Source: Candidatus Pacearchaeota archaeon
Lineage (GTDB): Archaea > Nanobdellota > Nanobdellia > UBA10117 > JABICX01
DNA: 64,000 bases
Direction of reading: 5' to 3'
Assembly (NCBI GenBank): GCA_017608025.1
Contig: JAFCGM010000002.1
Location: forward strand, 6,250 to 70,249
The position numbers and the translations under genes are program-made. Shown here one piece after another: positions 1,027-59,413 of this stretch (its first letter is position 1; each line of letters begins with the position of its first letter). Under the pieces are notes generated by a model. It did not search any database. It was not told where the DNA came from and saw only the letters and a list, made by a program, of their open reading frames with translations.

Positions 1027-1160
1027 TAGCCCCATCCGGATTTGAACCGGAGTCTCAGGCTTTCTTCGAAATCCTCCCAACCAGTTTAGTGGCTGGAAGA
1101 CCCTTTTTGAAAGGGATTTCCTCCAAAGGCCTGAATGATTGGCCGCTACACTATGGGGCT
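1027..1160 (-). tRNA. tRNA-Gln(TTG) with ~60-nt intron in anticodon loop
   Basis: Acceptor AGCCCCA/TGGGGCT. Anticodon stem CAGGC/GCCTG with loop CTTTGGA. T-arm TCCGG-TTCAAAT-CCGGA. Intron lies 3' of position 37. Confidence 0.65.
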
Positions 1161-16840: not shown

Positions 16841-17619
16841 TTCTTATTATTCTCCTTTTTGCTATCTTGTGTTTTTGGTTTGTTTTTTGTTTCAGGCTTT
16901 TTTGATTCTGATTCTTTAGTTTGTTTGTTTTCTTTGTTAGGGGCGGTTTCTTTTGCTACAGTCCTTCTGCTGAAGGGACCCACAGCAGTGCTATCTTCGC
17001 CTGGCTCGATATCACTTTTATTTTCTTTGTTAGGGGCGGTTTCTTTTGCTGCTTTTTTTATTTTGGACAAAATCTCCTGCTTTTTCTTTTCATCAATTTT
17101 TTTCTTCTTTTTAATATCTGCAACTTCCTTGTCTTTTTTCTTCAGCTCTTCTTGTCTCTTTTTTTTCTTTTCTGCTTTTTCTTTTTTCTGCTTCTTTCTT
17201 TTTTCATAAGACTCTTTTATTTTCCTTATTTCAGAGTCAAGGTTTCTTATGTTTGAAAATGATATTTTTTTGCTTTTTGCTTTTTCGAGAATTTCAAGGC
17301 GTTTCTTGCTTCCTATTTTTGAAGACAAAATTGCGAAATTTTTCTCTGGATTGAAGTTTTTTAAATCATTGTGATTTTCAACTCTAAAAGGAGTTTTTCC
17401 TTCTTCATTTGCATGCCTTAGAATTGAAATTGTTTTGAATCCAATTGAAACCATCTTTGGTTTTCCTCGTCTTCTAAGCCTTAATTTTGACTGAACTCCG
17501 CGAGGCTTTCTCCACTTTGTTCCAAGCCGTTTTCTCCTGTGAGATTCCTGCCTTTTGAATTCTGGCATTTTCTTTTTTATTTTTTTCTTCTGCTTGGAAA
17601 GTTCTTTTAATGATTTCAT
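16837..17619 (-). CDS. rpl32e: Ribosomal protein L32e (eL32) with ~140-aa K/E-rich C-terminal tail carrying an in-frame repeat-element insertion
   Basis: eL32 core (RRKRLGTKWRKPRG...) followed by a low-complexity tail. Tail contains ...EDSTAVGPFSRRT... flanked by an exact 30-bp duplication. Confidence 0.85.
   Translation of the reverse strand: MKSLKELSKQKKKIKKKMPEFKRQESHRRKRLGTKWRKPRGVQSKLRLRRRGKPKMVSIGFKTISILRHANEEGKTPFRVENHNDLKNFNPEKNFAILSSKIGSKKRLEILEKAKSKKISFSNIRNLDSEIRKIKESYEKRKKQKKEKAEKKKKRQEELKKKDKEVADIKKKKKIDEKKKQEILSKIKKAAKETAPNKENKSDIEPGEDSTAVGPFSRRTVAKETAPNKENKQTKESESKKPETKNKPKTQDSKKENNKK
16958..17020 (-). repeat. Family-A short element (63 bp), in frame inside the eL32 tail
   Basis: gtccttCTGCTGaagggacccaCAGCAGtgctatcttcgcctggctcgatatcac, flanked by exact 30-bp direct repeats (16928-16957 / 17021-17050). 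Confidence 0.85.
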
Positions 17620-20925: not shown

Positions 20926-20936
20926 TTTTTGTCCTC

Positions 20937-21090
20937 TGTCCTTCTGCTGAAGGGACCCACAGCGGTCGTGTAAAGCTTTGCTTCACACAACGGTTTAACT
21001 CTAGTGACTGTCCTTCTGCTGAAGCCACTCATAGCAGTGCTATCTTCAGAAACAAAGTTTCCTTGATAACAGGTATTTAGCATTATAGGA
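20937..21090 (-). repeat. Two tandem family-A elements (A3a 20937-21008, A3b 21009-21090) inserted at the S17 stop / L14 start overlap
   Basis: Flanked by 26-bp direct repeats ttcattttttgtcctctgtccttctg (20921-20946 / 21091-21116) that each contain the ATGA overlap. Confidence 0.8.
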
Positions 21091-21091
21091 T

Positions 21092-23606: not shown

Positions 23607-23684
23607 TGTCTTTAAAGCAAAGGACTTGCGCGGGCTCTACCGAGCAAACTCGATAGCGCGAAAGTTCCTTAGTTTTTTGCCTCC
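23607..23684 (-). repeat. Family-A variant element (A5) between S19 and L22, abutting the L22 ATG
   Basis: GGAGGcaaaaaaCTAAGGAACTTTCGCGCTATCgagtttgctcggtagagcccgcgcaagtcctttgctttaaagaca then ATG. Confidence 0.75.
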
Positions 23685-23703
23685 TTTTTAAGATATTTCA
23701 TTT

Positions 23704-24099: not shown

Positions 24100-24180
24100 T
24101 GTCCTTCTAACAAGTTCTTTGTTTGCTAGCCTCCATTATTATTTTTCTATTTATCATTTTTTTACTTGCCGCGTCCTGCT

Positions 24181-24240
24181 CCCTTTTCTTTAGAAAAGAA
24201 AAGGTAAGTTTCCAAAAGAAACTTTTTTGAGCATTGTTAT
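24181..24240. repeat. Family-E palindromic element inserted between L2 and S19 with ~30-bp target duplication
   Basis: cccttttctttagaaaagaaaaggtaagtttccaaaagaaac, flanked by tatcatttttttacttgccgcgtcctg at 24151-24177 and 24243-24269. Confidence 0.75.
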
Positions 24241-24251
24241 CTATCATTTTT

Positions 24252-24965
24252 TTACTTGCCGCGTCCTGATTTTTTAGCTGAAAGCATTCCAACTTTCTGT
24301 CCTGGTGAACGTCCTTTTCTTCTTACAGTTGTTGATGTAGGTCTGTGCCTTCTGTGCGTTCCACCGTGTGGGTGGTCAACTGCGTTCATTGCAACTCCTT
24401 TTACTTTTGAAACAAGCTTGTTTTTTGCTTTTCTTTTGTGGTATGAGTTTCCAGCCTTTATTAAAGGCTTGTTTTTAACTCCAACTCCTGCAACTACTCC
24501 AAGAGATGCATAGCATTCTGGATTTAGTTTTATTTGCCTTTTTGAAGGCATCTTAATTACAATATTTTTCTTTTCTTTTGCAACCAATATTCCAGAAGCT
24601 CCTGCTGCTCTCAAAAGCTTTCCATTTTGTCCTGGAACTTTTTCTATGTTGAAAACTCTTGCTCCGATAGGAATGTCTTTCAAAGCAATTGCATTTCCAA
24701 CTGAAGAGTCTTTTCCTCCATAAAAAACTGTTTGTCCAACTTTGATTCCCATTGGTGCTGGAAGCAAACACATTTGATCATCTTCATATTTTACTATCAT
24801 TAGTGGAGCTGAGTGTCCTACAGAGTTTACAATATCAATAACCTCCCCCTGAAGTATTTCTTTGGACTTAATTGGGTAACGAATTTCTCCAAAATAACGG
24901 TGGCTTGGAGACTTATATCTAGGTGAGCCTTTTCCTCTTCTTTGCGTAATAAGCCTTTTTCCCAT
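24252..24965 (-). CDS. rpl2: Ribosomal protein L2 (uL2)
   Basis: uL2 sequence with a GGTHRRHRP-type C-terminus. Start taken at MGKRLITQRRGKG. The 11 upstream codons in the ORF track are the repeat element. Confidence 0.9.
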   Translation of the reverse strand: MGKRLITQRRGKGSPRYKSPSHRYFGEIRYPIKSKEILQGEVIDIVNSVGHSAPLMIVKYEDDQMCLLPAPMGIKVGQTVFYGGKDSSVGNAIALKDIPIGARVFNIEKVPGQNGKLLRAAGASGILVAKEKKNIVIKMPSKRQIKLNPECYASLGVVAGVGVKNKPLIKAGNSYHKRKAKNKLVSKVKGVAMNAVDHPHGGTHRRHRPTSTTVRRKGRSPGQKVGMLSAKKSGRGK

Positions 24966-25074
24966 GTCCTTCTCGCGAAGGGACCCACTCAGCCGCAAAA
25001 TCGGCTGGCGCTTTCATCAGGCAGATGTTGGTCTGATGCCTGATAGCGCGAAAGTTCCTTAGTTTTTTGCCTCC
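24966..25074 (-). repeat. Family-A long element (A6, 109 bp) between L23 and L2, abutting the L2 ATG
   Basis: GGAGGcaaaaaaCTAAGGAACTTTCGCGCTATCaggcatcagaccaacatctgcctgatgaaagcgccagccgATTTTGcggctgagtGGGTCCCTTCgcgaGAAGGAC then ATG. Confidence 0.85.
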
Positions 25075-25099
25075 ATTATTTTTATCATTATTCTTCTCC

Positions 25100-28396: not shown

Positions 28397-28562
28397 GGTT
28401 TTCCTAAAAAGCCTATTCTAATTTAAAAGTGTTTCTATAGAAAAAAATAGAACACTAACTATAATATGTAAAAAAAGTAAGTATCACAAATTGTCAAATC
28501 CATAATTATATCTGCTACAGGATTTATTTTACTTTAAAAAGTGTTTGTATTCCCAAAGCTTT

Positions 28563-28656
28563 CTTAGAAAGAAAGCTTGCAAAGAACAACATTTTTCTTA
28601 GAAAGAAAGCTTGCAAAGAACAACATTTTTCTTAGAAAGAAAGCTTGCAAAAAATT
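28563..28656. repeat. Tandem repeat, 34-bp unit x ~2.8, each unit a palindrome (gctttctt-aga-aagaaagc)
   Basis: cttagaaagaaagcttgcaaagaacaacattttt repeated head-to-tail. Confidence 0.85.
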
Positions 28657-28661
28657 GAAAT

Positions 28662-28714
28662 TTTAGAAAAAGCGGCTAGGACTACATCTAAGGCGGCTAC
28701 GCCTTCTGCGGAAA
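28662..28714 (-). ncRNA. Candidate small RNA or conserved intergenic element, family D copy 1
   Basis: Near-identical 53-bp copy of 32318-32370: tttagaaaaagcggctaggactRcRtctaaggcggctacgccttctgcggaaa. Minus-sense would end in T5. Confidence 0.3.
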
Positions 28715-28889
28715 AATAGCTCTTTTTCTTTTCGAGAACATTTTCTTTTTCAAAAGAAAAGGTTCAAGCGAGCCCGGAGGGATTCGATTACCTCGGCAAA
28801 CCCTTTAAAAAAGTGTTTGCATTCCCAAATGTTTTTTTCGAGCGAAGCGAGACTTTTTAGCAACTTGCCTTTTTTTGAAAAAGGCAGAG

Positions 28890-29052
28890 CGAGCCCGGAG
28901 GGATTCGAACCCTCGATCTACAGCTAACTCCAGCACATTAAAGTCTTTTAGCTTATCTTTGCAGGCATCGCATTTTGTTTGCCTGCTCAAAGCGCCAGCC
29001 AATTTTGCGGCTGTAGGAGGCTGTCGCCCTATCCAGACTAGGCTACGGGCCC
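28890..29052 (-). tRNA. tRNA-Arg(CCT) with 88-nt intron at 37/38; the intron carries a family-A repeat module
   Basis: Acceptor GGGCCCG/CGGGCTC. Anticodon stem ACAGC/GCTGT with loop CTCCTA^A. T-arm GAGGG-TTCGAAT-CCCTC. Intron contains CAGCCG-CAAAAT-TGGCTG plus a long stem. Confidence 0.65.
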
Positions 29053-32317: not shown

Positions 32318-32370
32318 TTTTTAGAAAAAGCGGCTAGGACTGCGTCTAAGGCGGCTACGCCTTCTGCGGA
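32318..32370 (-). ncRNA. Candidate small RNA or conserved element, family D copy 2
   Basis: Second copy of the family-D 53-mer, directly after the 5S terminator. Followed by the palindrome gaaacttttggaaaaagtttc also found at the tRNA-Leu 5' flank. Confidence 0.3.
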
Positions 32371-32459
32371 AACTTTTGGAAAAAGTTTCATCAAAAACAG
32401 AATCATATTTTTACATTATCTCTTTTCCATATTGATTTTAGTTAAGATTCTTTAGTGCA

Positions 32460-32540
32460 GTCCTTTTAGCTAAGAGACCCACGCTGGCGACAAACATTGG
32501 TTATGAAAAGTCGCATAAGCTCTTAAATTATTTCTTTTTC
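32460..32540 (-). repeat. Degenerate family-A element flanked by diverged ~30-bp direct repeats
   Basis: gtccttttagctaagagacccacgctggcg... between attgattttagttaagattctttagtgca and atgttaattttaactaagactctttggtgca. Confidence 0.5.
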
Positions 32541-35894: not shown

Positions 35895-36842
35895 TTATTT
35901 TTTCAGCATTTTCTTTTTTCTTATTCTTCTATAAATGAAGAATCCTGTTACTGCAATTACTGCAAACAAAAAATATATTCCATATGGCGCTGGTTTTTGG
36001 GCTAAACCATATTTGTATAGGTCTTTCTGAGAATACACGCGAATATCTATTGTCTGCTCATCCATGTAACTTCTACTGTTTGCATCAGTATATTCAAGTG
36101 TAAATGGAAGAGTTATTATTTTAGTTTCAGGATTTTTTGAATCTGATTTAAAATAAATGTCAAAAACTGCAGTTTCAAAATCATCTGACTCAAGTTCGCC
36201 AACATAAACTTCGTGCGGTGAAAGAACAATGTATTCATCTGTTTCATCAAGTGTTATTGTCAGGTATTTTGTATTTAGTGAGCCTTTATTTACAATGTTT
36301 GTTGTAATTCTTGATTTCTTGTTAAATGATACAGAATCCAAATCTTCAATTCCCACATCAACCCTTGGCTCTCCACCAGTTTTCACTGTTATTGTCACAG
36401 ATGTTTTTTTCATTTCTTTTTCACATTCGCTGTCGCTACATGAAATAAATTCAAGAGAATAATCTCCTGCTTTTGTGTTCTCATTTACAAAAAGCCTGTA
36501 ATCAAGAAGCTTATTCGAATTTGTTCCGATGATTCCTGTGCTTTTTATTGAATCTTCTCCCGGAACAAGGGAAAACGGATATTCTGGATTTACTTTTATG
36601 TATGCATTATCCAATTGCTCATTTCCAATATTCTGGACAGATATCCAAACGCGCAGAGTGTTGTCTGGCTCAGCAGGAACTGGGTCGTAGTCCTTAAGCA
36701 CAACCTTAACATCTGCATTTTCAGCTACAAGGGCCATTGCCGCAAACGGAACTATTACTAAAATTGTAAAAAGTGCGAAAAGCACTTTAATTGCTTTTTT
36801 CATTTTCAACTCTCCCATCTTTAAGATAAAACACTTTCTCAT
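35895..36842 (-). CDS. Exported protein with C-terminal membrane anchor (ABC-transporter-associated)
   Basis: Signal-like N-terminus, beta-rich body, C-terminal TM helix plus RRIRKKK. Co-transcribed with the permease and ATPase. Confidence 0.4.
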   Translation of the reverse strand: MRKCFILKMGELKMKKAIKVLFALFTILVIVPFAAMALVAENADVKVVLKDYDPVPAEPDNTLRVWISVQNIGNEQLDNAYIKVNPEYPFSLVPGEDSIKSTGIIGTNSNKLLDYRLFVNENTKAGDYSLEFISCSDSECEKEMKKTSVTITVKTGGEPRVDVGIEDLDSVSFNKKSRITTNIVNKGSLNTKYLTITLDETDEYIVLSPHEVYVGELESDDFETAVFDIYFKSDSKNPETKIITLPFTLEYTDANSRSYMDEQTIDIRVYSQKDLYKYGLAQKPAPYGIYFLFAVIAVTGFFIYRRIRKKKMLKK

Positions 36843-39009
36843 CTCGAGCTAATTTTTCGAAACGAGAATCGTGAGTTACGATTATTAATGTCTTATTTTT
36901 GTTTTTCCACAAATCAATTAAAATCTTCACAATCTTTTTTCCTGTTTTTGAATCAAGATTTCCTGTTGGCTCATCAGCAAGAATTATTTCTGGATCGTTT
37001 GCAAGAGAGCGGGCAATTGCAACTCTTTGTTGCTCTCCGCCAGACATTTCAGAAGGAAGATGATTTTTTCTGTGCTCAAGGCCAACTATATCCAAAAGCT
37101 CTGATGCTCTTTTAATTCGCTCTTCTTTAGATATATTCTGAAAGACCATTGTAAGAGCAACATTTTCAATTGCAGTAAGGCTTTGAATCAAGTTGAATTT
37201 CTGAAATACAAATCCTATTTTGCTTCCACGAATTTGTGCAAGCTCTGACTCTTCAAGAGAGGAAATGTCTTTTCCATTAAGATATATTTTGCCTTTTGTT
37301 GGAACATCAAGGCATCCAATCATGTTCATTGCTGTAGAATTATGAACAATAAACTCATTTGCTATAAAATTATCTGCACCAGGAACAGTTATGTCATAAA
37401 CTGTTGTCTTTTTATTTATTTTTTTGACTGCAATAACCTTATCCCAAAAAATATCTGAGTCGATTAACGCAGAAAGTTTATCTGTATTGATTTTGTTTTC
37501 TGAAAGAAGATTATTAATCAATTTTAATTTATTCACTGAAGGATTAATTCTTTTAGACTCATATGGATTAAGAACTTTATGAATTCTTCTTGATACTTTT
37601 ACTTTAGACTCTCTTCTAACTTTCTGTAATAATTCTCCACAAGGAATTACATCTACATTCGTATTCTCTTTGTTTTTTAAGTGGCTAAGAAGCCTTTTTT
37701 TCTTATCTGATGAAATAAAGCCAATGTGCTTCTCATACAATTTAAGATTGTTCAATCCAGAAATAGATAATAAATAATAAAATCTATTTGTTTTTTTATT
37801 AAATTTTTTGGGGAGTCTAGAAACAATTCCATACCTCAGAAGCAAATAATTTAATTGAGTGATAAGGTCTTTGCTTGCAAGAGTTATTGCTACTTCTTTT
37901 TTGTTTTTTGAAACATAACCATCACAATCAAACAATGCCCTAATAAAAGCAGCAATTTCTTTGTTAGAACATCTAAAAACAAATTCCGGCAGTTTTATTT
38001 TTCTTGATTTAAGATTTAGAGGAAAATTAAATATTTTATTGAAAAAAATAAGTAAGACCTTATTATTAACAGCTAATCTTGTATCCATAAATTTTTTTGC
38101 ATCAACTTCAAAAATTCGATTTACTAAATAAGAAAATCTCTCATTTATTTTTGGGTCTAAATTTGTAAATTTTATTCCATCCTTATCTAAATTTCCATCT
38201 CCTGCAATAAAGCCATATAGCTCCATTAAATCTTTAGAAATCTTTTTCGGCATTCTTACTTTATTGTGCGAACCTGCAGGAGTTATATAAAAATTACACT
38301 TATATTCAGAAATATCTGTACCACAGTAATCCATAATTTTCTTAAAATTCTCCAATGAAATATTATTATTATGTTTCCAAGCATCATAACTAAAGTAATT
38401 AAATTTCAGTTTCTTGCATAATTCCTTTCCAGAAATCTTTGAATTTTTGAGAAGTTTTCGGATTAATTTGCTTGAATCAAAGAGATATAATCTTTTGTTT
38501 GCACTTGCAAGTTTTAGCAAATCAATTTCTTGTTTTTTTGGTTTTGTATTTATTTTTCTTGCTGTGGCAACAAAAATTCCTTTTTTAAGATTTGTTGCGC
38601 GAATTTCACTGAAGCCATTAGAATCTAAAGTGAAAAAGGGATGTTCTGGAGTACTTACTATTTTTTTGCCTGAAGAAGTTGTAATTTCATAAATCTGATT
38701 CGCTTCTCGTTTATAAAAATCAGAGACTCTGAAAGGTTTAATTTTATTGGATTTTCTATCTAATGCAAGAACTTTATATTTCTTATATTTTCTTTCAAAA
38801 TCTTTTAGATTTATTAAAGAGCCATCTTCCAAAAACAATTTAGTGTCTCCAGTAAGGCATTTTCCACTGCCTGATGGGCCCATTATAACAACAAAATCTC
38901 CTTGATTTACTTTAAGGCTTAGGCCTCGGAGTGCTGGAACTTCCACTGCACCCATTTTATAAATCTTCCAAGCATCTTTGATTTTAATAAGTGTTTTTGA
39001 GGAAGTCAT
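36787..39009 (-). CDS. ABC transporter ATP-binding protein (MacB/LolD-type) interrupted by a 507-aa intein
   Basis: Extein N-part ends GPSGSGK, then intein CLTGDTK...IVHN, then extein resumes [16 protein letters not shown]-like SGGEQQR, Walker B ILADEPT and H-loop all present. Confidence 0.85.
37339..38859 (-). other. Intein with LAGLIDADG homing-endonuclease domain, inserted in the Walker A P-loop (GSGK^ST)
   Basis: Block A Cys1 (CLTGDTKL), LAGLIDADG pair [11 protein letters not shown] / [12 protein letters not shown], terminal HN followed by +1 Ser. Confidence 0.8.
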
Positions 39010-41950: not shown

Positions 41951-42937
41951 TTAAAACGCCTGTTTATAGTCAGGAGCGTCTCTTGGCGAAAAATCAATCT
42001 CAATATCAAAAGAAAAAATAGCTTTCACCAAAATACAAATATTATAAACCAAACATTTCAAATACAATTCATTTACTTGAGATTCAAAGTTCTTAAAATA
42101 TAATTTAGCACCAAACTTACGCTTTAATGCACTGAAGCTTGCTTCTACATTAGACCTTTTGTGATAGTGCTTATAGAATTTACTTCTATTCTTACGGAAC
42201 AGTTCCAATGAAGTTTTCCAAACACCGCTTTTTCTCTTCATTCCACAATTACTTCTGAAAGGAATATATGGAACGCCACCATAATGATGAACCGTCTCTA
42301 AATTATGCCTAGAAGAATATGCTTTATCTCCTAATACTTCATCAATCTTGAAATTCTCAGCAGTTCTTGAAACTAACTTATCAAATTCAGGAGAATCATG
42401 ACATTCACCTGTAGTAATTTCAAGAGAAGTAATTACATTCGTAAAAATCCCACACATTGCATGACATTTAACAAATTTATGCCTGTCATTATATCCGACT
42501 CTTGAATCAAACCATCTCTCATAACTATTAGTTGAGAATCCAGTCGAATCAACTGCAAACCTAGTCTCCAAGTATTTCAAAGGCATAGCAGACATCATAA
42601 GTAAATAATTCAATGTTGGGGTCAAAGATTTTCTTCTCATGTAGTCCGTAACAGAAGAATGATGTGGGACTTTTTTAATATATCCCATATCTTTGAGAAA
42701 CCATAATTGAGATGTAAGTGTTCTTGAAGGCATCCCAAAATATAACTTCATAGCTAGGCAGAAGATTACATCCTTTTGATTGTGCATTGGACGACCTTTT
42801 TTCTTTATTGGTTCCGATACAGTTTCATCCAATAGATTTCTGAGGATTTCAACAAAGAGTCTACCTTCCTTAGTTTGCGCTTTATTGTAGGAAGTCCAGT
42901 CTCTATCTTTTGTGAATTCTTTAATTTTTGATTGCAT
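41951..42937 (-). mobile_element. IS5/IS4-superfamily DDE transposase gene (IS ends not resolved)
   Basis: DDE_Tnp_1-like blocks FAVDSTGF, LGDKAYSS, EASFSALKRKFG. Confidence 0.7.
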
Positions 42938-46155: not shown

Positions 46156-46860
46156 TCAAAGCTGGTTAAAGCATCTCTTGAAGTTCTTTTCGATCTGTTC
46201 CTCAACATCTTCTGGGGAGAACTTCTTTATTCTGGCAATCTCCCTAATTACTTTTTTTATGCTTGTTTTTGGGTTGTCTGTTATATACGGGAAATCTGTT
46301 TCTGTTAAGATTCGCGAAAGAGGAACTATTTCAACTAGCTTCTTAACTTCTGGATACTTGAAGATGAAAGTGTTGATTGAAAAGTAGAATTTAGACTTTA
46401 TGTCTTCAATTAATTCTGGGTTTCCTGTGTATGAATGAATTACTGCCTTTCCATTATAATTTTTAAGCATTTTTGCAACTACTCCTTCTGCCTGCCTGCA
46501 GTGTATAATCACTGGCTTGTTTATCTGCTTTGCAAGCTTCAGAATTTCGCTGAAGTATTTTTTGTGCACAGGCCTTTCTGTTTTTGATGAATATTTATAG
46601 TCAAGCCCTACTTCGCCGACTGCGACTATTTTGTTTTTTTTATTTTTTATTTCTTCAAACTCGGCATAAATTTCCTTTTCAAGATATTCGGAAAATCTTG
46701 TTGGATGGAAACCGATTGCTGCAAAAACATTTTCATATTTTTCAGAAAATTTTAGAACTTCTTTATTTGACTCTGGGTCAAGACCGTTTACTATTACAGG
46801 AATGTTCTTGTATTTTTTAAAATCTTTTTCTTTTGCATGTGAATGTGCGTCGTATAGCAT
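46156..46860 (-). CDS. tatD: TatD-family deoxyribonuclease/hydrolase
   Basis: MLYDAHSHA..., HCRQAEG, VIHSYTG and TETDFPYI TatD motifs. The upstream extension in the ORF track is repeat-derived. Confidence 0.8.
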   Translation of the reverse strand: MLYDAHSHAKEKDFKKYKNIPVIVNGLDPESNKEVLKFSEKYENVFAAIGFHPTRFSEYLEKEIYAEFEEIKNKKNKIVAVGEVGLDYKYSSKTERPVHKKYFSEILKLAKQINKPVIIHCRQAEGVVAKMLKNYNGKAVIHSYTGNPELIEDIKSKFYFSINTFIFKYPEVKKLVEIVPLSRILTETDFPYITDNPKTSIKKVIREIARIKKFSPEDVEEQIEKNFKRCFNQL

Positions 46861-46914
46861 TACACAATAACCTCGATTATTACTCTTATTAATGAGTAAT
46901 GTATGTACCAGTCC

Positions 46915-46980
46915 TTCTAGCCAAGGGACACAAGCTGGTCGTGTACAGCAGAGCTGCACACAACTTAAACCTTAATCTCA
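46915..46980 (-). repeat. Family-A short element (66 bp) flanked by 39-bp direct repeats
   Basis: ttctagccaagggacacaagctggtcgtgtacagcagagctgcacacaac... between attattactcttRttaatgagtaatgtatgtaccagtcc copies at 46876 and 46981. Confidence 0.7.
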
Positions 46981-47019
46981 ATTATTACTCTTGTTAATGA
47001 GTAATGTATGTACCAGTCC

Positions 47020-47078
47020 GTTTCGCCCGGACTGTGCGAAAGCGCATTGCTTCGCAATGCACTATACTTTTATTTCAG
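47020..47078. repeat. Family-C structured element (copy 1), nested next to the family-A copy
   Basis: gtccg-tttcgcc-cggac hairpin plus gcgcattgc-ttc-gcaatgcac hairpin. 96 bp between flanking repeat copies. Confidence 0.65.
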
Positions 47079-47832
47079 TTATTACTCTTGTTAATGAATG
47101 ATGTACATACCATTCAAACTCATTTATTACATTATATTTTGATAGGTCTAATTTAAGGGTTTTGGGTCGAATGAAAATTATCTTGTGATTTTTCTTCACG
47201 ATTTTATGTGCTTCTTCTAAAAAAGAGTTGTAAAGAGTTTTTATTTTTTTGCCGGCGAGAGTCGAGCTTTTTCCATATGGAGGATCGCAAACAATTGCTT
47301 CAATTTTATCAGAGAACAATGAAGATATGTTTGTAGCATCTCCAATAATCACCTGCCAATCTTTTCCTTCCCTTATGTTATATTTATCAGAATAAAATCT
47401 AAGATTGGTTTTGGAAGCTTGTGCAGCTTTCCATTTAATATCTATTCCTATTCCTTTAATTCCAAGAATAGCACTTTCCAAAATAATAGAACCTGTTCCG
47501 CAAAAGGGATCTACAATTTGATTCTTAGCTTCAGACAAGTTAATTAAAAGACGGGCAAGCTTTGGTTTTAGTGCTGTTGGATGAAATGCTGGCTTTTTCT
47601 GAGGTTCTCGGTCCAGAAACTGACCAGATTTTCTTTCCCATATGCAATAATCATTTAAGTAAGCTTTTTTTATTCCTGCGCTTTTTACACACAAATCAAT
47701 TATTTTCTTAGAAGGAATTTTTTTGCTGAAAAATACATAATTTTCTTTTAATTTAGAATTAACATTAAAAAGGATATCAACCTCCCGCTTAAATGCGGAC
47801 AGGTTTTCTCCAGAAATTCTCAGCTTAATCAT
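47062..47832 (-). CDS. tRNA (guanine-N2)-methyltransferase, Trm11/Trm-G10-like
   Basis: DPFCGTGS (motif I) and DPPYG (motif IV). Confidence 0.6.
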   Translation of the reverse strand: MIKLRISGENLSAFKREVDILFNVNSKLKENYVFFSKKIPSKKIIDLCVKSAGIKKAYLNDYCIWERKSGQFLDREPQKKPAFHPTALKPKLARLLINLSEAKNQIVDPFCGTGSIILESAILGIKGIGIDIKWKAAQASKTNLRFYSDKYNIREGKDWQVIIGDATNISSLFSDKIEAIVCDPPYGKSSTLAGKKIKTLYNSFLEEAHKIVKKNHKIIFIRPKTLKLDLSKYNVINEFEWYVHHSLTRVITEIKV

Positions 47833-52787: not shown

Positions 52788-52805
52788 AAACTTCAAAGCA
52801 GAGCT

Positions 52806-52862
52806 GTCCGTCTCGCCCGGACTGTGCGGAAGCGCACATACGCTAACGCGTAGTGCACTGTA
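52806..52862. repeat. Family-C structured element (copy 2)
   Basis: gtccgtctcgcccggactgtgcggaagcgcacatacgctaacgcgtagtgcactgta. Same hairpin positions as copy 1, with compensatory changes. Confidence 0.65.
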
Positions 52863-54278: not shown

Positions 54279-54395
54279 CTGTCCTTCTGCTGAAGCCATC
54301 CACAGAGCCCTTTTGGAAAAAGCGCTCGCGGAAAACGGCAAATGCGGTCGTGTAAAGCTTTGCTTCACACACGGTTTAATTCTGGTTTTAGTCCT
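54279..54395 (-). repeat. Family-A element (copy A9) filling the thrS-PLD intergenic region
   Basis: ctgtccttctgctgaagccatccacag...gcggtcgtgtaaagctttgcttcacacacgg... The gtgtaaagc/gcttcacac hairpin is shared with A3a. Confidence 0.7.
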
Positions 54396-54412
54396 TATTC
54401 TAAAGATATTGC

Positions 54413-56119
54413 TTATTTCTTTTTTTCTACTTCAGTTTGGACTTGCTTAATAAAGTCTTTTGGACTTACTCCGAACTTTGGCTTTGTGCCATGCTTTCGA
54501 ACTGCAAGAGTTTTTGCTTTGAGCTCTTTTTCTCCAACTACAATTATGTAAGGAATTTTCTCAATTTCAGCATCTCTTATTCTTGACTGAACAGTTTCAT
54601 CTCTGAAATCTTCTTTAATTCTGATATTATATTTACGTAGCTCTTTTGCGATTTTTTGTGCATAAGGTATAAGCTTTTCATTCATGTTGATGATTACTGC
54701 CTGAGTTGGAGCAAGCCAAAGCGGAAATGCACCTTCTGTCTGCTCAATCAAAATTCCGAGGAATCTTTCCATGGAACCGAAAACAGTTCTATGTAGCATA
54801 ACAATTCTGTGCTTTTTGTTATCTTTTCCAATATAATTCATGTCAAATCTTTCTGGAAAATTGAAGTCGAGCTGAATTGTTCCAAGCTGCCAATATCTTC
54901 CTAATTTGTCTTTTGCATGGAAGTCGAGTTTTGGGCCATAGAAAGCACCATCTCCTTTATTGACTTTATACTTCATTTTTGTTTTCTTTAGAACTTTTTC
55001 AAGAGTGTATTCTGCTTTTTTCCAAATTGCATCTGAGCCAATGTATTTTTTGGGTTTTGTTGAAAATTCTATTTTCACATTTGTCAATCCAAAGATTTTG
55101 TAGATTTCTTTAATTAGATTAACTAATTTAATTATTTCATCCACTACTTGGTCTTCTCTGCAAAAAATATGCGCGTCGTCTTGAGTTGCAGCGCGAACTC
55201 TGAACAGACCTGAGAGATTTCCTGAGAGCTCGTTTCTGTATATTGTTCCAAATTCTGCAAATCTCAATGGCAAATCGCGATAGCTTCGTGGTTGAGAATT
55301 GTAAATATAAACATGGCCTGGGCAGTTCATTGGCTTTATTCCGTAAACCTGGTCGTCAACTTCAGAAAAGAACATTTCTTCGCGGTATTTCTCATAGTGG
55401 CCTGATTTTTTCCACAATTCGATTTTGTAAATATGGGGAGTGTAAACTAAATCATATCCTTTTTCCAGTAACTTGTTTTTCATGAATTCCTCTATTTTGT
55501 AGCGGACAAATCCTAGTTTTGGGTGAAACAAAGGAAGTCCTGGACCAAGGTCTTCATGGAAACTGAACAAATCAAGCTTTGAATTTATTTTACGATGATC
55601 GTTTTTTGGAAGCTTTTTTTCCACATACGCTTTTACTTGTTTTTTCTGCTTTTTTGCTGACTCATCTGTTTTAAGCAAAGGAAGAGATTCTGCATTTCCA
55701 AACCGAATTTCGCGGCTGAGCTCTGCGAGAGGGTGGCCTTTTACATGAATGTCAAACTCCTTATACCAGCCAAATGGTGCTTTTTTAACTTGCTTGAAGG
55801 ATTTTTTCAGATTTTTTTCAATTGAATTTATTAAATTATCTGCAGTTGTTGGAGAACTGGGAATTGTGGTTAAATGAACATATGGGTATAGCATTATGTT
55901 TTCAGCTTTTACTTGTTTTGACATTTTCTTTATTTCATCTACTGCTTGCTTAGTGATTTTTTCCATATAATCTTCATCGCCTTTTTCAGCAGATGCAAAA
56001 ACAGTTATACATTCCTTCATTTCCTGCTTAGAATTTTTCTTTACGTTTTCAGCGTCTTTAATTGCCTTTCTTCTTGCAATAACTTCTATGCTTTTTGAAT
56101 GTAGCATTAATAATTTCAT
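54413..56119 (-). CDS. thrS: Threonyl-tRNA synthetase
   Basis: Class-II motifs and ThrRS catalytic core with a C-terminal anticodon-binding domain. Start taken at MKLLML. The upstream 14 codons are repeat element A8. Confidence 0.9.
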   Translation of the reverse strand: MKLLMLHSKSIEVIARRKAIKDAENVKKNSKQEMKECITVFASAEKGDEDYMEKITKQAVDEIKKMSKQVKAENIMLYPYVHLTTIPSSPTTADNLINSIEKNLKKSFKQVKKAPFGWYKEFDIHVKGHPLAELSREIRFGNAESLPLLKTDESAKKQKKQVKAYVEKKLPKNDHRKINSKLDLFSFHEDLGPGLPLFHPKLGFVRYKIEEFMKNKLLEKGYDLVYTPHIYKIELWKKSGHYEKYREEMFFSEVDDQVYGIKPMNCPGHVYIYNSQPRSYRDLPLRFAEFGTIYRNELSGNLSGLFRVRAATQDDAHIFCREDQVVDEIIKLVNLIKEIYKIFGLTNVKIEFSTKPKKYIGSDAIWKKAEYTLEKVLKKTKMKYKVNKGDGAFYGPKLDFHAKDKLGRYWQLGTIQLDFNFPERFDMNYIGKDNKKHRIVMLHRTVFGSMERFLGILIEQTEGAFPLWLAPTQAVIINMNEKLIPYAQKIAKELRKYNIRIKEDFRDETVQSRIRDAEIEKIPYIIVVGEKELKAKTLAVRKHGTKPKFGVSPKDFIKQVQTEVEKKK

Positions 56120-56193
56120 TGTCCTTCTAGTGACGGGACCCACGCTGGCTTTACTGAACAAGCTTGATAGCGCGAAAGTTCCTTATGTCCTCC
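56120..56193 (-). repeat. Family-A element (copy A8), forming the thrS 5' leader
   Basis: Minus-sense: GGAGGacataaggaacTTTCGCGCTATCaagcttgttcagtaaagccagcGTGGGTCCCgtcactaGAAGGACA then ATG. A TTTATA box abuts its 5' end at 56194-56200. Confidence 0.75.
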
Positions 56194-56364
56194 TATAAAT
56201 TGTTTAGAAATACGGCTATTTAAATTATTCTCCGTTGCCCTCAATAAAATTAATGGGCGACAAAAGCGCCAGCTGATTTCGCGGCTGTGTGGGGCACTCA
56301 CCGTTAATAGCCATAAAATTCTTTATTGAAGAAGATTTAAAAGGTTTGTTGTAAAAAGCAGATT

Positions 56365-58663: not shown

Positions 58664-59413
58664 CTACTGGTTTTCAATTCGCGGAGCCAGAATAAAGGAC
58701 ATGCTTAGCTTATCAAGAGCTTTGAAGTCAATTCTCAAAGGATAATCTTGGCTGAATTTAATAGTTGCAGTATCAGAAATTGTTGAGGCTTTTGCTATTT
58801 TCTTTAAATATTCTATTGAGTATATTGATTTTGATTCTTCTTTTACATTCAAATTTACAAGAACATCTTTGCTTTCTTTGTTTATATTAATTTCAACTTT
58901 GCTGCTCTTTTCCCCAGCCATTAATTTTATTTCATCTTTTGTTGCATGAAAAGTTAAGGCATCACCAACAACGCTTGCATCTTCAATATAATCCTTAAAC
59001 TCATTTGCATCTATTTCAATTTCTGCATTGAAATTAAGAGATGGTATATTCTTTTCACCGCCTTCTTTTTCAAGAAGAGGGATTTTAAATTTTTTTGAAG
59101 TTTTTCCAGAAAAAGAAATTAGCAATGCGCTTTCATCTGTTGAAAAGGAAATTGAATCTCCTGTTTTTGCTCTTTTCAAAGCCATTTTAAGTGTTTCAAC
59201 ATTCACTGTAATTTCTTCTTCACTTTCAACTTTGTATTCTGTAAATGCTGAAGGCAAGATATTCAGAATTACCATTGAAATATTTGCAGGGTCCATTGCA
59301 ACCAGCTTAAAGCCGTCTTTTGTGATTTTGAAAGTTGCTTCTGCAATAAAATCAGATATTACATTTGTTGCATTTGAGAAAAATTTAGCATCATCTAGTT
59401 TAAGACTAAACAT
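58664..59413 (-). CDS. pcn: DNA polymerase sliding clamp PCNA
   Basis: Two-domain PCNA fold, 249 aa, typical N-terminus MFSLKLDDAKFF. Confidence 0.9.
   Translation of the reverse strand: MFSLKLDDAKFFSNATNVISDFIAEATFKITKDGFKLVAMDPANISMVILNILPSAFTEYKVESEEEITVNVETLKMALKRAKTGDSISFSTDESALLISFSGKTSKKFKIPLLEKEGGEKNIPSLNFNAEIEIDANEFKDYIEDASVVGDALTFHATKDEIKLMAGEKSSKVEININKESKDVLVNLNVKEESKSIYSIEYLKKIAKASTISDTATIKFSQDYPLRIDFKALDKLSMSFILAPRIENQ

Follow-up and report, generated by a model that had tools for sequence, protein, structure and literature searches.

The leader of a DPANN archaeal thrS gene is probably a decaying copy of a lineage-restricted mobile hairpin repeat

In a 64,000-nucleotide stretch of archaeal DNA (hereafter, the window), the start codon of the threonyl-tRNA synthetase gene thrS is directly preceded by a short block that also stands before ribosomal protein (r-protein) genes. 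Is this leader an operator that regulates the synthetase gene, or did it reach its position by some other route? The mark of a bacterial thrS operator is a stem-loop with the Thr anticodon in a 7-nt loop near the ribosome-binding site, conserved together with thrS. A sequence-only reading of the window had proposed a regulatory leader of an analogous kind. Here, we argue that the thrS leader is probably no operator specific to thrS but an old copy, now in decay, of a non-autonomous mobile element restricted to one lineage.

The thrS coding sequence occupies 54413–56119 on the minus strand and encodes 568 amino acids from an ATG at 56119. This ATG is the true start, as a 568-amino-acid database protein is 100% identical to the product and homologues of about 560 amino acids align over their full length. 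In the protein database comparison, the best named relatives of the ThrRS were found in Aenigm-, Pace- and Nanoarchaeota MAGs, and the host is therefore a DPANN archaeon. The leader copy (56120–56185, minus strand; 42.9 bits with the covariance model described below) is 66 nt long and consists of UAA plus 63 nt. Its 3' end lies directly on the AUG, with which the UAA is in frame, so the earlier description of a repeat element abutting the start codon was accurate. The order on the minus strand is TTTATA (56199–56194), GGAGG (56193–56189), ACA from 56188, and then the 66-nt block. From 56188 the text runs ACA-TAAGGAAC-TTTCGCGCTATC..., with GTGGGTCCC at 56143–56135, GAAGGACA at 56127–56120, and the ATG at 56119. 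Divided into modules, the block reads UAAGGAAC-UUUC-GCGCUAUCAAGCUUGUUCAGUAAAG-CCAGCG-UGGGUCCCGU-CACUAG-AAGGACA, followed by AUG. Read from the sequence, GCGCUAUCAAGCUUGUUCAGUAAAG is the remnant of a first hairpin (56149–56173, minus strand). Stem-loop 2, formed by CCAGCG, the loop UGGGUCCCGU and CACUAG (56127–56148, minus strand), contains two C·A mismatches. The alignment of copies identifies AAGGAC (56121–56126, minus strand) as an invariant 3' motif, complementary to GUCC(C)UU in the loop.

The repeat family to which this block belongs, family A, is GC-rich in a window of 33% GC, and its members are about 57–66 nt long. Each comprises a 5' UAAG(G/A), a hairpin 1 that varies in sequence (at least three types are present), stem 2 of 6 bp with the loop UGGGUCCCUU, and the invariant 3' AAGGAC(A/U). 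With up to three mismatches allowed, the pattern GTGGGTCCCTTN5GAAGGAC has nine matches in the window, all of them on the minus strand; the chance expectation is 0.02. For the 36-nt 3' module, a covariance model recovered 15 copies: 11 in the window and two in each of two related genomes, L001 and L002. All window copies are in sense orientation. One of the L001 copies runs antisense to the genes next to it, and this speaks against an obligatory role at the mRNA level. Family A elements end on AUG at seven or eight genes, and about half of the copies abut a start codon. One composite copy fills the spacer between thrS and the downstream PLD-like gene (Pfam PLDc_2; 54279–54412, minus strand) and ends ...CAGCAGAAGGACAG / GAAGGACAG-ATG; as had been pointed out before, the PLD-like gene thus has the same arrangement as thrS, with ...CAGCAGAAGGACAG-ATG at 54279. 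Another copy lies upstream of a TatD-like gene (46911–46964, minus strand), within three direct repeats of about 50–63 nt of the 3' end of the upstream gene. An intergenic copy found by the covariance model is located next to the 5S rRNA gene (32456–32530, minus strand).

Other repeats were also seen in the window. Two further GC-rich families are represented at 47005–47064 and 52788–52861, and at 28670–28713 and 32322–32379 (all minus strand). A family we call D (GCGCTTYCGCACAGTCCGGGCGARACGGAC) also ends in a hairpin with the 3' strand ...GGAC, and a family C consists of TTCCGCAGAAGGCGTAGCCGCCTTAGAYGYAGTCCTAGCCGCTT. At 46860–47124, the three direct repeats upstream of the TatD-like gene, which derive from the 3' end of a methyltransferase gene, alternate with a family D and a family A element.

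Stem 2 is well supported by covariation. All six of its pairs covary among the copies (CCAGCG/CGCUGG, CUGCUG/CAGCAG, UUAGUG/CACGAA and others), the observed score was reached by none of 500 shuffles, and controls with slid partners collapse. The second potential helix, between GUCC(C)UU in the loop and AAGGAC, involves columns that are nearly invariant, with variants that only replace a pair by G·U; no two-sided changes were seen for AAGG/CCUU among the copies, and this pairing is hence unproven. An H-type pseudoknot combining stem 2 with CCUU:AAGG was considered and set aside on structural grounds. The two helices would be alternatives, because both strands of the second helix flank the 3' strand of stem 2 without a linker, and the pairings were judged mutually exclusive. 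A search of Rfam, both at the gathering score and at E values up to 10, returned no family, so ribozymes and known leaders were rejected. The thrS loci of two more distant relatives (L016 and L017) contained no element and no significant match to the model. The genome and metagenome collections, of which the window's own contig is not part, each yielded four single, chance-like motif matches in high-GC bacteria and similar sources. In the literature, we found no described DPANN or archaeal equivalent of family A.

Of the copies at start codons, that of thrS shows the most decay. By our count, its hairpin 1 has lost three of nine pairs compared with the copy between S3 and L29, all by G-to-A or C-to-U changes. 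The minimum free energy of the thrS leader (-16.1 kcal/mol) is no better than that of shuffled sequences (z = +0.17), while most other copies fold better than their shuffles (z = -1.4 to -3.2). The leader had been called structured, a description that its degraded stems do not bear out. The length of the copy is still a multiple of three despite the decay.

Next, we considered where transcription and translation of thrS may start. TTTATA (56194–56199, minus strand) had been read as a TATA-like box upstream of the element. It is present, just before GGAGG, and it is a common string: it occurs 100 times per 64-kb window, which corresponds to a 6.7% chance in any 100 nt of one strand. A likelier role for it is that of initiator region in a short-leader promoter, comparable to ATAGGTGA at two other genes. 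A better TATA-box candidate, TTTAAATA (56217–56224, minus strand), lies 25 nt upstream of TTTATA and starts at -105. A TTWAATA box is found exactly 23 nt before GGAGG in the window, L001 and L002 alike, and starts at -45 in L001, as in the short-leader class, and at -105 in the window, which equals -45 plus the insertion. Where window genes have an upstream spacer, the start positions of TATA-like octamers peak near -30; taken as a pattern of DNA motifs, this peak implies leaderless mRNAs. A second group, seen for instance at the genes that end at 59413 and 58008, lies near -42 to -45, before a leader that begins ...ATAGGTGA... and is about 15 nt long. The promoter geometry of the host would thus favour TTTAAATA as the TATA box and 'ATAGGAGG' / 'TTTATAGGAGG' as initiator and Shine-Dalgarno (SD) sequence; with TTTAAATA as the TATA box, the entire element would therefore lie in the 5' untranslated region between the SD and the AUG. 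The earlier reading, in which TTTATA at 56199–56194 directs a start near 56170 inside the element, is kept possible by TTTTATAT at -26 in L001. The SD-like motif GGAGG (56189–56193, minus strand) is kept in L001 and L002, and in the window it is 69 nt away from the AUG through the element. AAGGA at the 3' end of the element is unlikely to serve as a replacement SD, since it is 2–3 nt from the AUG versus 6–10 nt for the clear SDs of the window.

The orthologous thrS sites of the relatives differ in precisely this region. In L001, the closest relative (ThrRS 79% identical), AGGAG-N10-ATG is intact (...TTTTAGGAGAAATTGGAAA / TTTTATATTTTAGGAGAAATTGGAAA-ATG) and there is no element. In L002 (ThrRS 77% identical), AGGAGG-N10 is followed by a 67-nt element with a different hairpin 1, and then by the ATG. 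The 3' modules of the window and L002 thrS copies are about 76% identical (22 of 29 positions, our own count), and the proteins are 77% identical; this likeness could leave room for selection on the part adjacent to the AUG. The covariance model had no match in the r-protein operons of L012, L014 and L011. At operon junctions where the window carries inserts of 66–170 nt, L012 and L014 have TAA-ATG or ATGA. Because the orthologous site is empty in L001 and the r-protein operons of relatives have no copies, the comparison indicates that the thrS element is an insertion. Multiple copies and orthologous empty sites were thus both found, as for a generic dispersed mobile repeat, and on these alignments family A is best described as a recent, lineage-restricted, mobile family. 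The insertion between the thrS SD and AUG would have occurred in an ancestor of the window genome and L002, or twice independently.

A second insertion lies further upstream of thrS (56233–56287, minus strand). It contains a hairpin of another type, CAGCCG..CGGCUG (family B), and one more hairpin; it is absent from L001 and present in L002, and it is related to part of a tRNA-Arg intron. This region also holds a conserved micro-ORF directly upstream of thrS (56314–56225, minus strand, in the window; about 1307–1342 in L001 and about 5081–5161 in L002), with the peptides MAINGECPT... (29 amino acids) in the window, MAINGEYPTVD in L001 and MAVKKVCPT... in L002. About 31 nt upstream of its ATG, the micro-ORF has a conserved TTTTTAAAT box of its own, and its 3' part contains the inserted family B hairpin. 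It was looked for at the more distant thrS loci of L016 and L017 and was absent there. It may be a tiny gene or code for a leader peptide, possibly on one transcript with thrS.

The tRNA-Arg(CCU) gene (28890–29052, minus strand) has an 88-nt intron that contains the family B-like hairpin. A second copy of the 3' half of this tRNA, 84% identical over 32 nt, lies 121 nt downstream (28756–28787) and adjoins three 34-nt tandem repeats (28560–28661); together they may be the scar of an integrated element. At 1029–1159 (minus strand), the window appears to contain a tRNA gene with the anticodon UGG (Pro), an intron of about 61 nt and good bulge-helix-bulge (BHB) flanks, which was missed by ARAGORN and by the Rfam search at the gathering score. 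An ABC-type ATPase gene (36787–39009, minus strand) is interrupted by an intein with a LAGLIDADG homing-endonuclease domain.

The archaeal r-protein operon on the minus strand of the window bears out the statement that the leader is shared with r-protein genes, with copies at the S3/L29, S19/L22, L23/L2 and S17/L14 junctions. The best-preserved copy is that between S3 and L29 (22222–22287, minus strand), where exactly 66 nt separate the S3 stop from the L29 AUG and relatives have TAA-ATG. The S19/L22 junction (about 95 nt; 23607–23701, minus strand) consists of a 10-codon mini-ORF, a copied S3 tail, followed by a degenerate element. At L23/L2 (about 133 nt; 24966–25099, minus strand), a 9-codon mini-ORF is followed by an element with a nested family B hairpin. 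The 166-nt S17/L14 junction (20926–21091, minus strand) holds two elements in tandem, with 25-nt direct repeats on either side, and a 57-codon ORF runs across it. An insert of about 150 nt on the same strand, which the operons of relatives do not have, separates L2 from S19. Two r-protein genes carry the element within their coding sequence, as in-frame insertions in the C-terminal tails of L24 (20066–20134, minus strand; flanking direct repeats 93 nt apart) and L32e (16957–17016, minus strand; 34-nt flanking repeats, likewise 93 nt apart; absent from the L011 and L012 orthologues). In both proteins the insert amounts to 31 in-frame C-terminal codons, made up of the element and a duplication of 27–34 nt, and the orthologues do without it.

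Inserts of other kinds occur in these operons as well. Between L2 and S19, an AT-rich two-hairpin insert that does not belong to family A (24179–24237, minus strand) is flanked by 31-nt direct repeats (24148–24178 and 24238–24268) that are 90 nt apart. It is followed by a family A remnant without hairpins, GGAGGC...GAACTT|GTT|AGAAGGACA-ATG. In L012 (GCA_964435825.1, 5459–5520), a different 62-nt AT-rich hairpin insert at S19/L22 duplicates TAAAATGGC; read from the sequence, it is bridged by a 19-codon ORF whose stop lies 1 nt before the L22 AUG. The 2693-nt contig of L011 (GCA_964558255.1) has the order L6 - L32e - S3, unlike the canonical order of the window and L012, and is either rearranged or a chimeric assembly.

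How can such elements persist in the middle of an operon? The lengths of family A elements are multiples of three, and one sense frame is always open. The same frame is read in L24 (...EDSASVGPFAGRT...), in L32e (...EDSTAVGPFSRRT...) and twice in the 57-codon ORF at S17/L14, all of which read ...S(T/A)(A/S)VGPF(S/A)(R/G)RT, the in-frame behaviour known from Rickettsia palindromic elements (RPEs; see below). The 57-codon ORF (21095–20922) begins on the ATGA in which S17 also stops, continues through both elements, and terminates on the ATGA in which L14 starts. A 46-codon ORF (24247–24107) bridges the gap between L2 and S19 and stops 9 nt before the S19 AUG. In shuffled sequences, the probabilities of such open frames are 0.02 and 0.012. 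The junction and leader subtype has a UAA in frame with the 3' AUG; the distance between the two is 63 nt at thrS and 66 nt at S3/L29. This UAA is the S3 stop itself at S3/L29 and the stop of the mini-ORFs (9–10 codons, S3-tail copies) at S19/L22 and L23/L2. Archaeal termination-reinitiation coupling requires overlaps or very short spacers (PMC6728339, PMC10666635). We therefore infer that only insertions that preserve the delivery of ribosomes to the next start survive in the operon. Family A would then persist in a very compact genome through its compatibility with translation, and at the larger junction insertions the open bridging ORFs would carry ribosomes across to the next start. A link to translation had been proposed for the thrS leader; the in-frame UAA...AUG and the bridging ORFs across the junction insertions lend it substance, and the part that found no support was a regulatory leader specific to thrS. 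Open-frame ORF calls run upstream into the elements at thrS (to TTG at 56161 and GTG at 56143), L2 (24998) and the PLD-like gene (54368).

An alternative is that family A exerts cis-acting translational control, with stem 2 and the GUCC(C)UU:AAGGAC helix as mutually exclusive hairpins that sequester or expose the AUG region and so set the translation of thrS, the r-protein genes and other genes; an RNA-binding protein common to them might mediate this. The elements that end on AUG at seven or eight genes, the complementary and nearly invariant loop and 3' motif whose variants still pair as G·U, the 3' module kept between the window and L002 at thrS, and the uniform sense orientation in the window are all in keeping with such control. 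We nevertheless regard it as distinctly unlikely. The same genes of close relatives have no element, which is consequently not needed for their expression; copies are also found in frame inside coding sequence, at the 3' ends of genes and once in antisense; and the thrS copy has lost the stability of its stems. Moreover, ThrRS, the PLD-like and TatD-like proteins and several r-proteins have no common regulatory logic, and the AAGG/CCUU pairing is without two-sided changes. The narrower form, autoregulation by ThrRS through a tRNA-Thr mimic as in E. coli, can draw on the position before thrS and on a CUUGUUC string in the hairpin-1 remnant. Here too the copy sits immediately upstream of the thrS start, like the E. 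coli operator and other synthetase leaders, and there the likeness ends. CUUGUUC has a U and not a purine at the equivalent of tRNA position 37 and is not in a 7-nt loop of the predicted fold, in which we found no 7-nt loop with a Thr anticodon in the leader. In the orthologous copy of L002, hairpin 1 is different and its loop is UUU, the L001 site is empty, and the same element precedes unrelated genes and enters coding sequence. With no tRNA-Thr mimicry, no specificity for thrS, no counterpart in the closest orthologue and a degraded local structure, the proposed analogue of the bacterial thrS operator is extremely improbable.

It is also conceivable that the element is processed out of the RNA, by splicing as an intron or by cleavage just before the AUG, which would restore the SD-AUG spacing or create leaderless cistrons. 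Leaderless-type promoters are common here, the commonest TATA start being near -30; the window encodes an RtcB ligase and an archease; a family B hairpin lies inside a tRNA intron; and the 3' end next to AUG is exactly the same in all copies. An archaeal BHB intron is marked by two 3-nt bulges with a 4-bp helix between them, at both borders. Scanning for this motif recovered, as positive controls, the tRNA-Arg intron and that of a tRNA missing from the annotation; around the elements its matches were at or below the level of shuffles, and none lay at an element border. Rfam contained no ribozyme match even at E values up to 10. That coding copies are in frame and stop-free, and that bridging ORFs continue through elements, speaks for retention of the element in the mRNA. 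Processing of the RNA is therefore highly unlikely. Family A and archaeal BHB introns are alike as GC-rich inserts in an archaeon with long tRNA introns, one module being shared with such an intron; they differ in that family A has no BHB at its borders and is read through by ORFs.

Returning to the mobile element, we asked what its copies reveal of how it moves. The 3' end is constant, GGAC(A/U), and the 5' extent varies from a truncated start AGUGAUAUC... to a version with about 30 nt of S3 coding sequence; the 3' tail of S3 was copied with the element to two other junctions. Flanking duplications measure 25, 27–38, 31, 34 or about 50–63 nt, or consist of AATG, or are missing. Several of them begin like the 3' end of the element itself, for example AGAAGGACAGAGGAC and CAGGAC. 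No terminal inverted repeats were found; the element ends are direct (AAGGAAC...AAGGACA). Since the 3' end is fixed and both the 5' extent and the flanking duplications vary, copy-and-paste with template switching or target-primed synthesis is suggested; we infer that such copying matches the pattern better than cut-and-paste transposition does. A search of the 64-kb window for a mobilizing enzyme detected no partner transposase, reverse transcriptase or Y1/TnpB. The window does encode a DDE transposase of the IS4/IS5 type (Pfam DDE_Tnp_1; 41951–42937, minus strand), and the inverted repeats near it are unrelated to family A. A MITE of this resident transposon was rejected as a source of family A, which lacks matching terminal inverted repeats and has flanking repeats of 0 to about 50–63 nt instead of a fixed length. 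An IS200/IS605-derived hairpin element (PATE) would agree with the two-hairpin layout and the ends without inversion; it would leave the long duplications at several copies to be accounted for, and the 64-kb window has no Y1/TnpB. A retroposed RNA, similar to a SINE, would agree with the fixed 3' end, the variable 5' end and the variable duplications; the 64-kb window has no reverse transcriptase gene.

The last comparison leads to a speculative and, in our estimate, unlikely extension, in which family A is a SINE-like retroposon of an archaeon, spread through an RNA or template-switch intermediate, and its junction subtype is a portable 'stop-start linker'. Such a linker, comprising an in-frame UAA, two hairpins and an AUG, could settle between coupled cistrons or between an SD and its AUG without killing expression. 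Some observations speak against the mobile-element explanation. The long and variable flanking duplications fit no characterized transposition mechanism. The thrS and PLD-like copies abut the start codon even though the spacer allowed other positions, which pure selfishness does not predict, and the sense orientation of all window copies would also fit a function at the RNA level.

Several known repeats resemble family A in part. RPEs are found in intergenic DNA and in frame inside unrelated genes, where they always encode the same peptide (PMC10969869). Like family A, they are short, structured, lineage-specific repeats of a reduced genome with both intergenic and in-frame copies; they differ in being bacterial, about 100–150 bp long and unrelated in sequence, and the coding inserts of family A are confined to disordered r-protein tails. 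To our knowledge, neither long flanking duplications nor a UAA...AUG junction subtype has been reported for RPEs. The GC clusters, double-hairpin and repetitive hairpin-forming elements of mitochondria are modular, with merging or shuffled hairpins and structure-preserving substitutions, and the enzyme that mobilizes them is unknown (PMC4478555, PMC2800124). They share with family A the spread of GC-rich hairpin modules in a compact AT-rich genome; they are organellar, and their flanking repeats are 2–3 nt long (AG or ACT) compared with 25–50 nt for family A. We know of no documented association of mitochondrial GC clusters with start codons or operon junctions. Prokaryotic MITEs and REP/BIME sequences are non-autonomous and multicopy, are co-transcribed with operons, and can affect downstream expression (PMC10969869, PMC2229807); in contrast to these, family A has no terminal inverted repeats, no target duplication of fixed length and no partner insertion sequence evident in the window. 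Family A is set apart from RPEs and GC clusters by its DPANN host, its long variable duplications, its UAA...AUG subtype and its colonization of an r-protein operon, and it is probably an undescribed variant of small mobile hairpin repeats.

For thrS itself the outcome is deflationary, as there is no evidence for an archaeal thrS operator. DPANN genomes are tiny, gene-dense and usually thought to be repeat-poor. In this 64-kb stretch of one of them, at least 11 copies of one element, together with several sister families, occupy sites that include the operon with the highest expression in the cell and the coding sequences of two ribosomal proteins. Judging by the long variable duplications and the flanks copied along with the element, insertion would have followed a mechanism outside the described prokaryotic ones. 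Elements of this kind mislead gene callers, and false N-terminal extensions are likely in automatic annotation. The copies part SDs from their AUGs and come between cistrons whose counterparts in relatives are coupled. There are two possibilities: structured spacers of 60–70 nt are tolerated by initiation in this lineage, or coupling is actively restored by the elements and their bridging ORFs. Both bear on the poorly understood initiation of archaeal translation. If the SINE-like reading were true, family A would have adapted, as a mobile element, to the translation machinery of a gene-dense genome.
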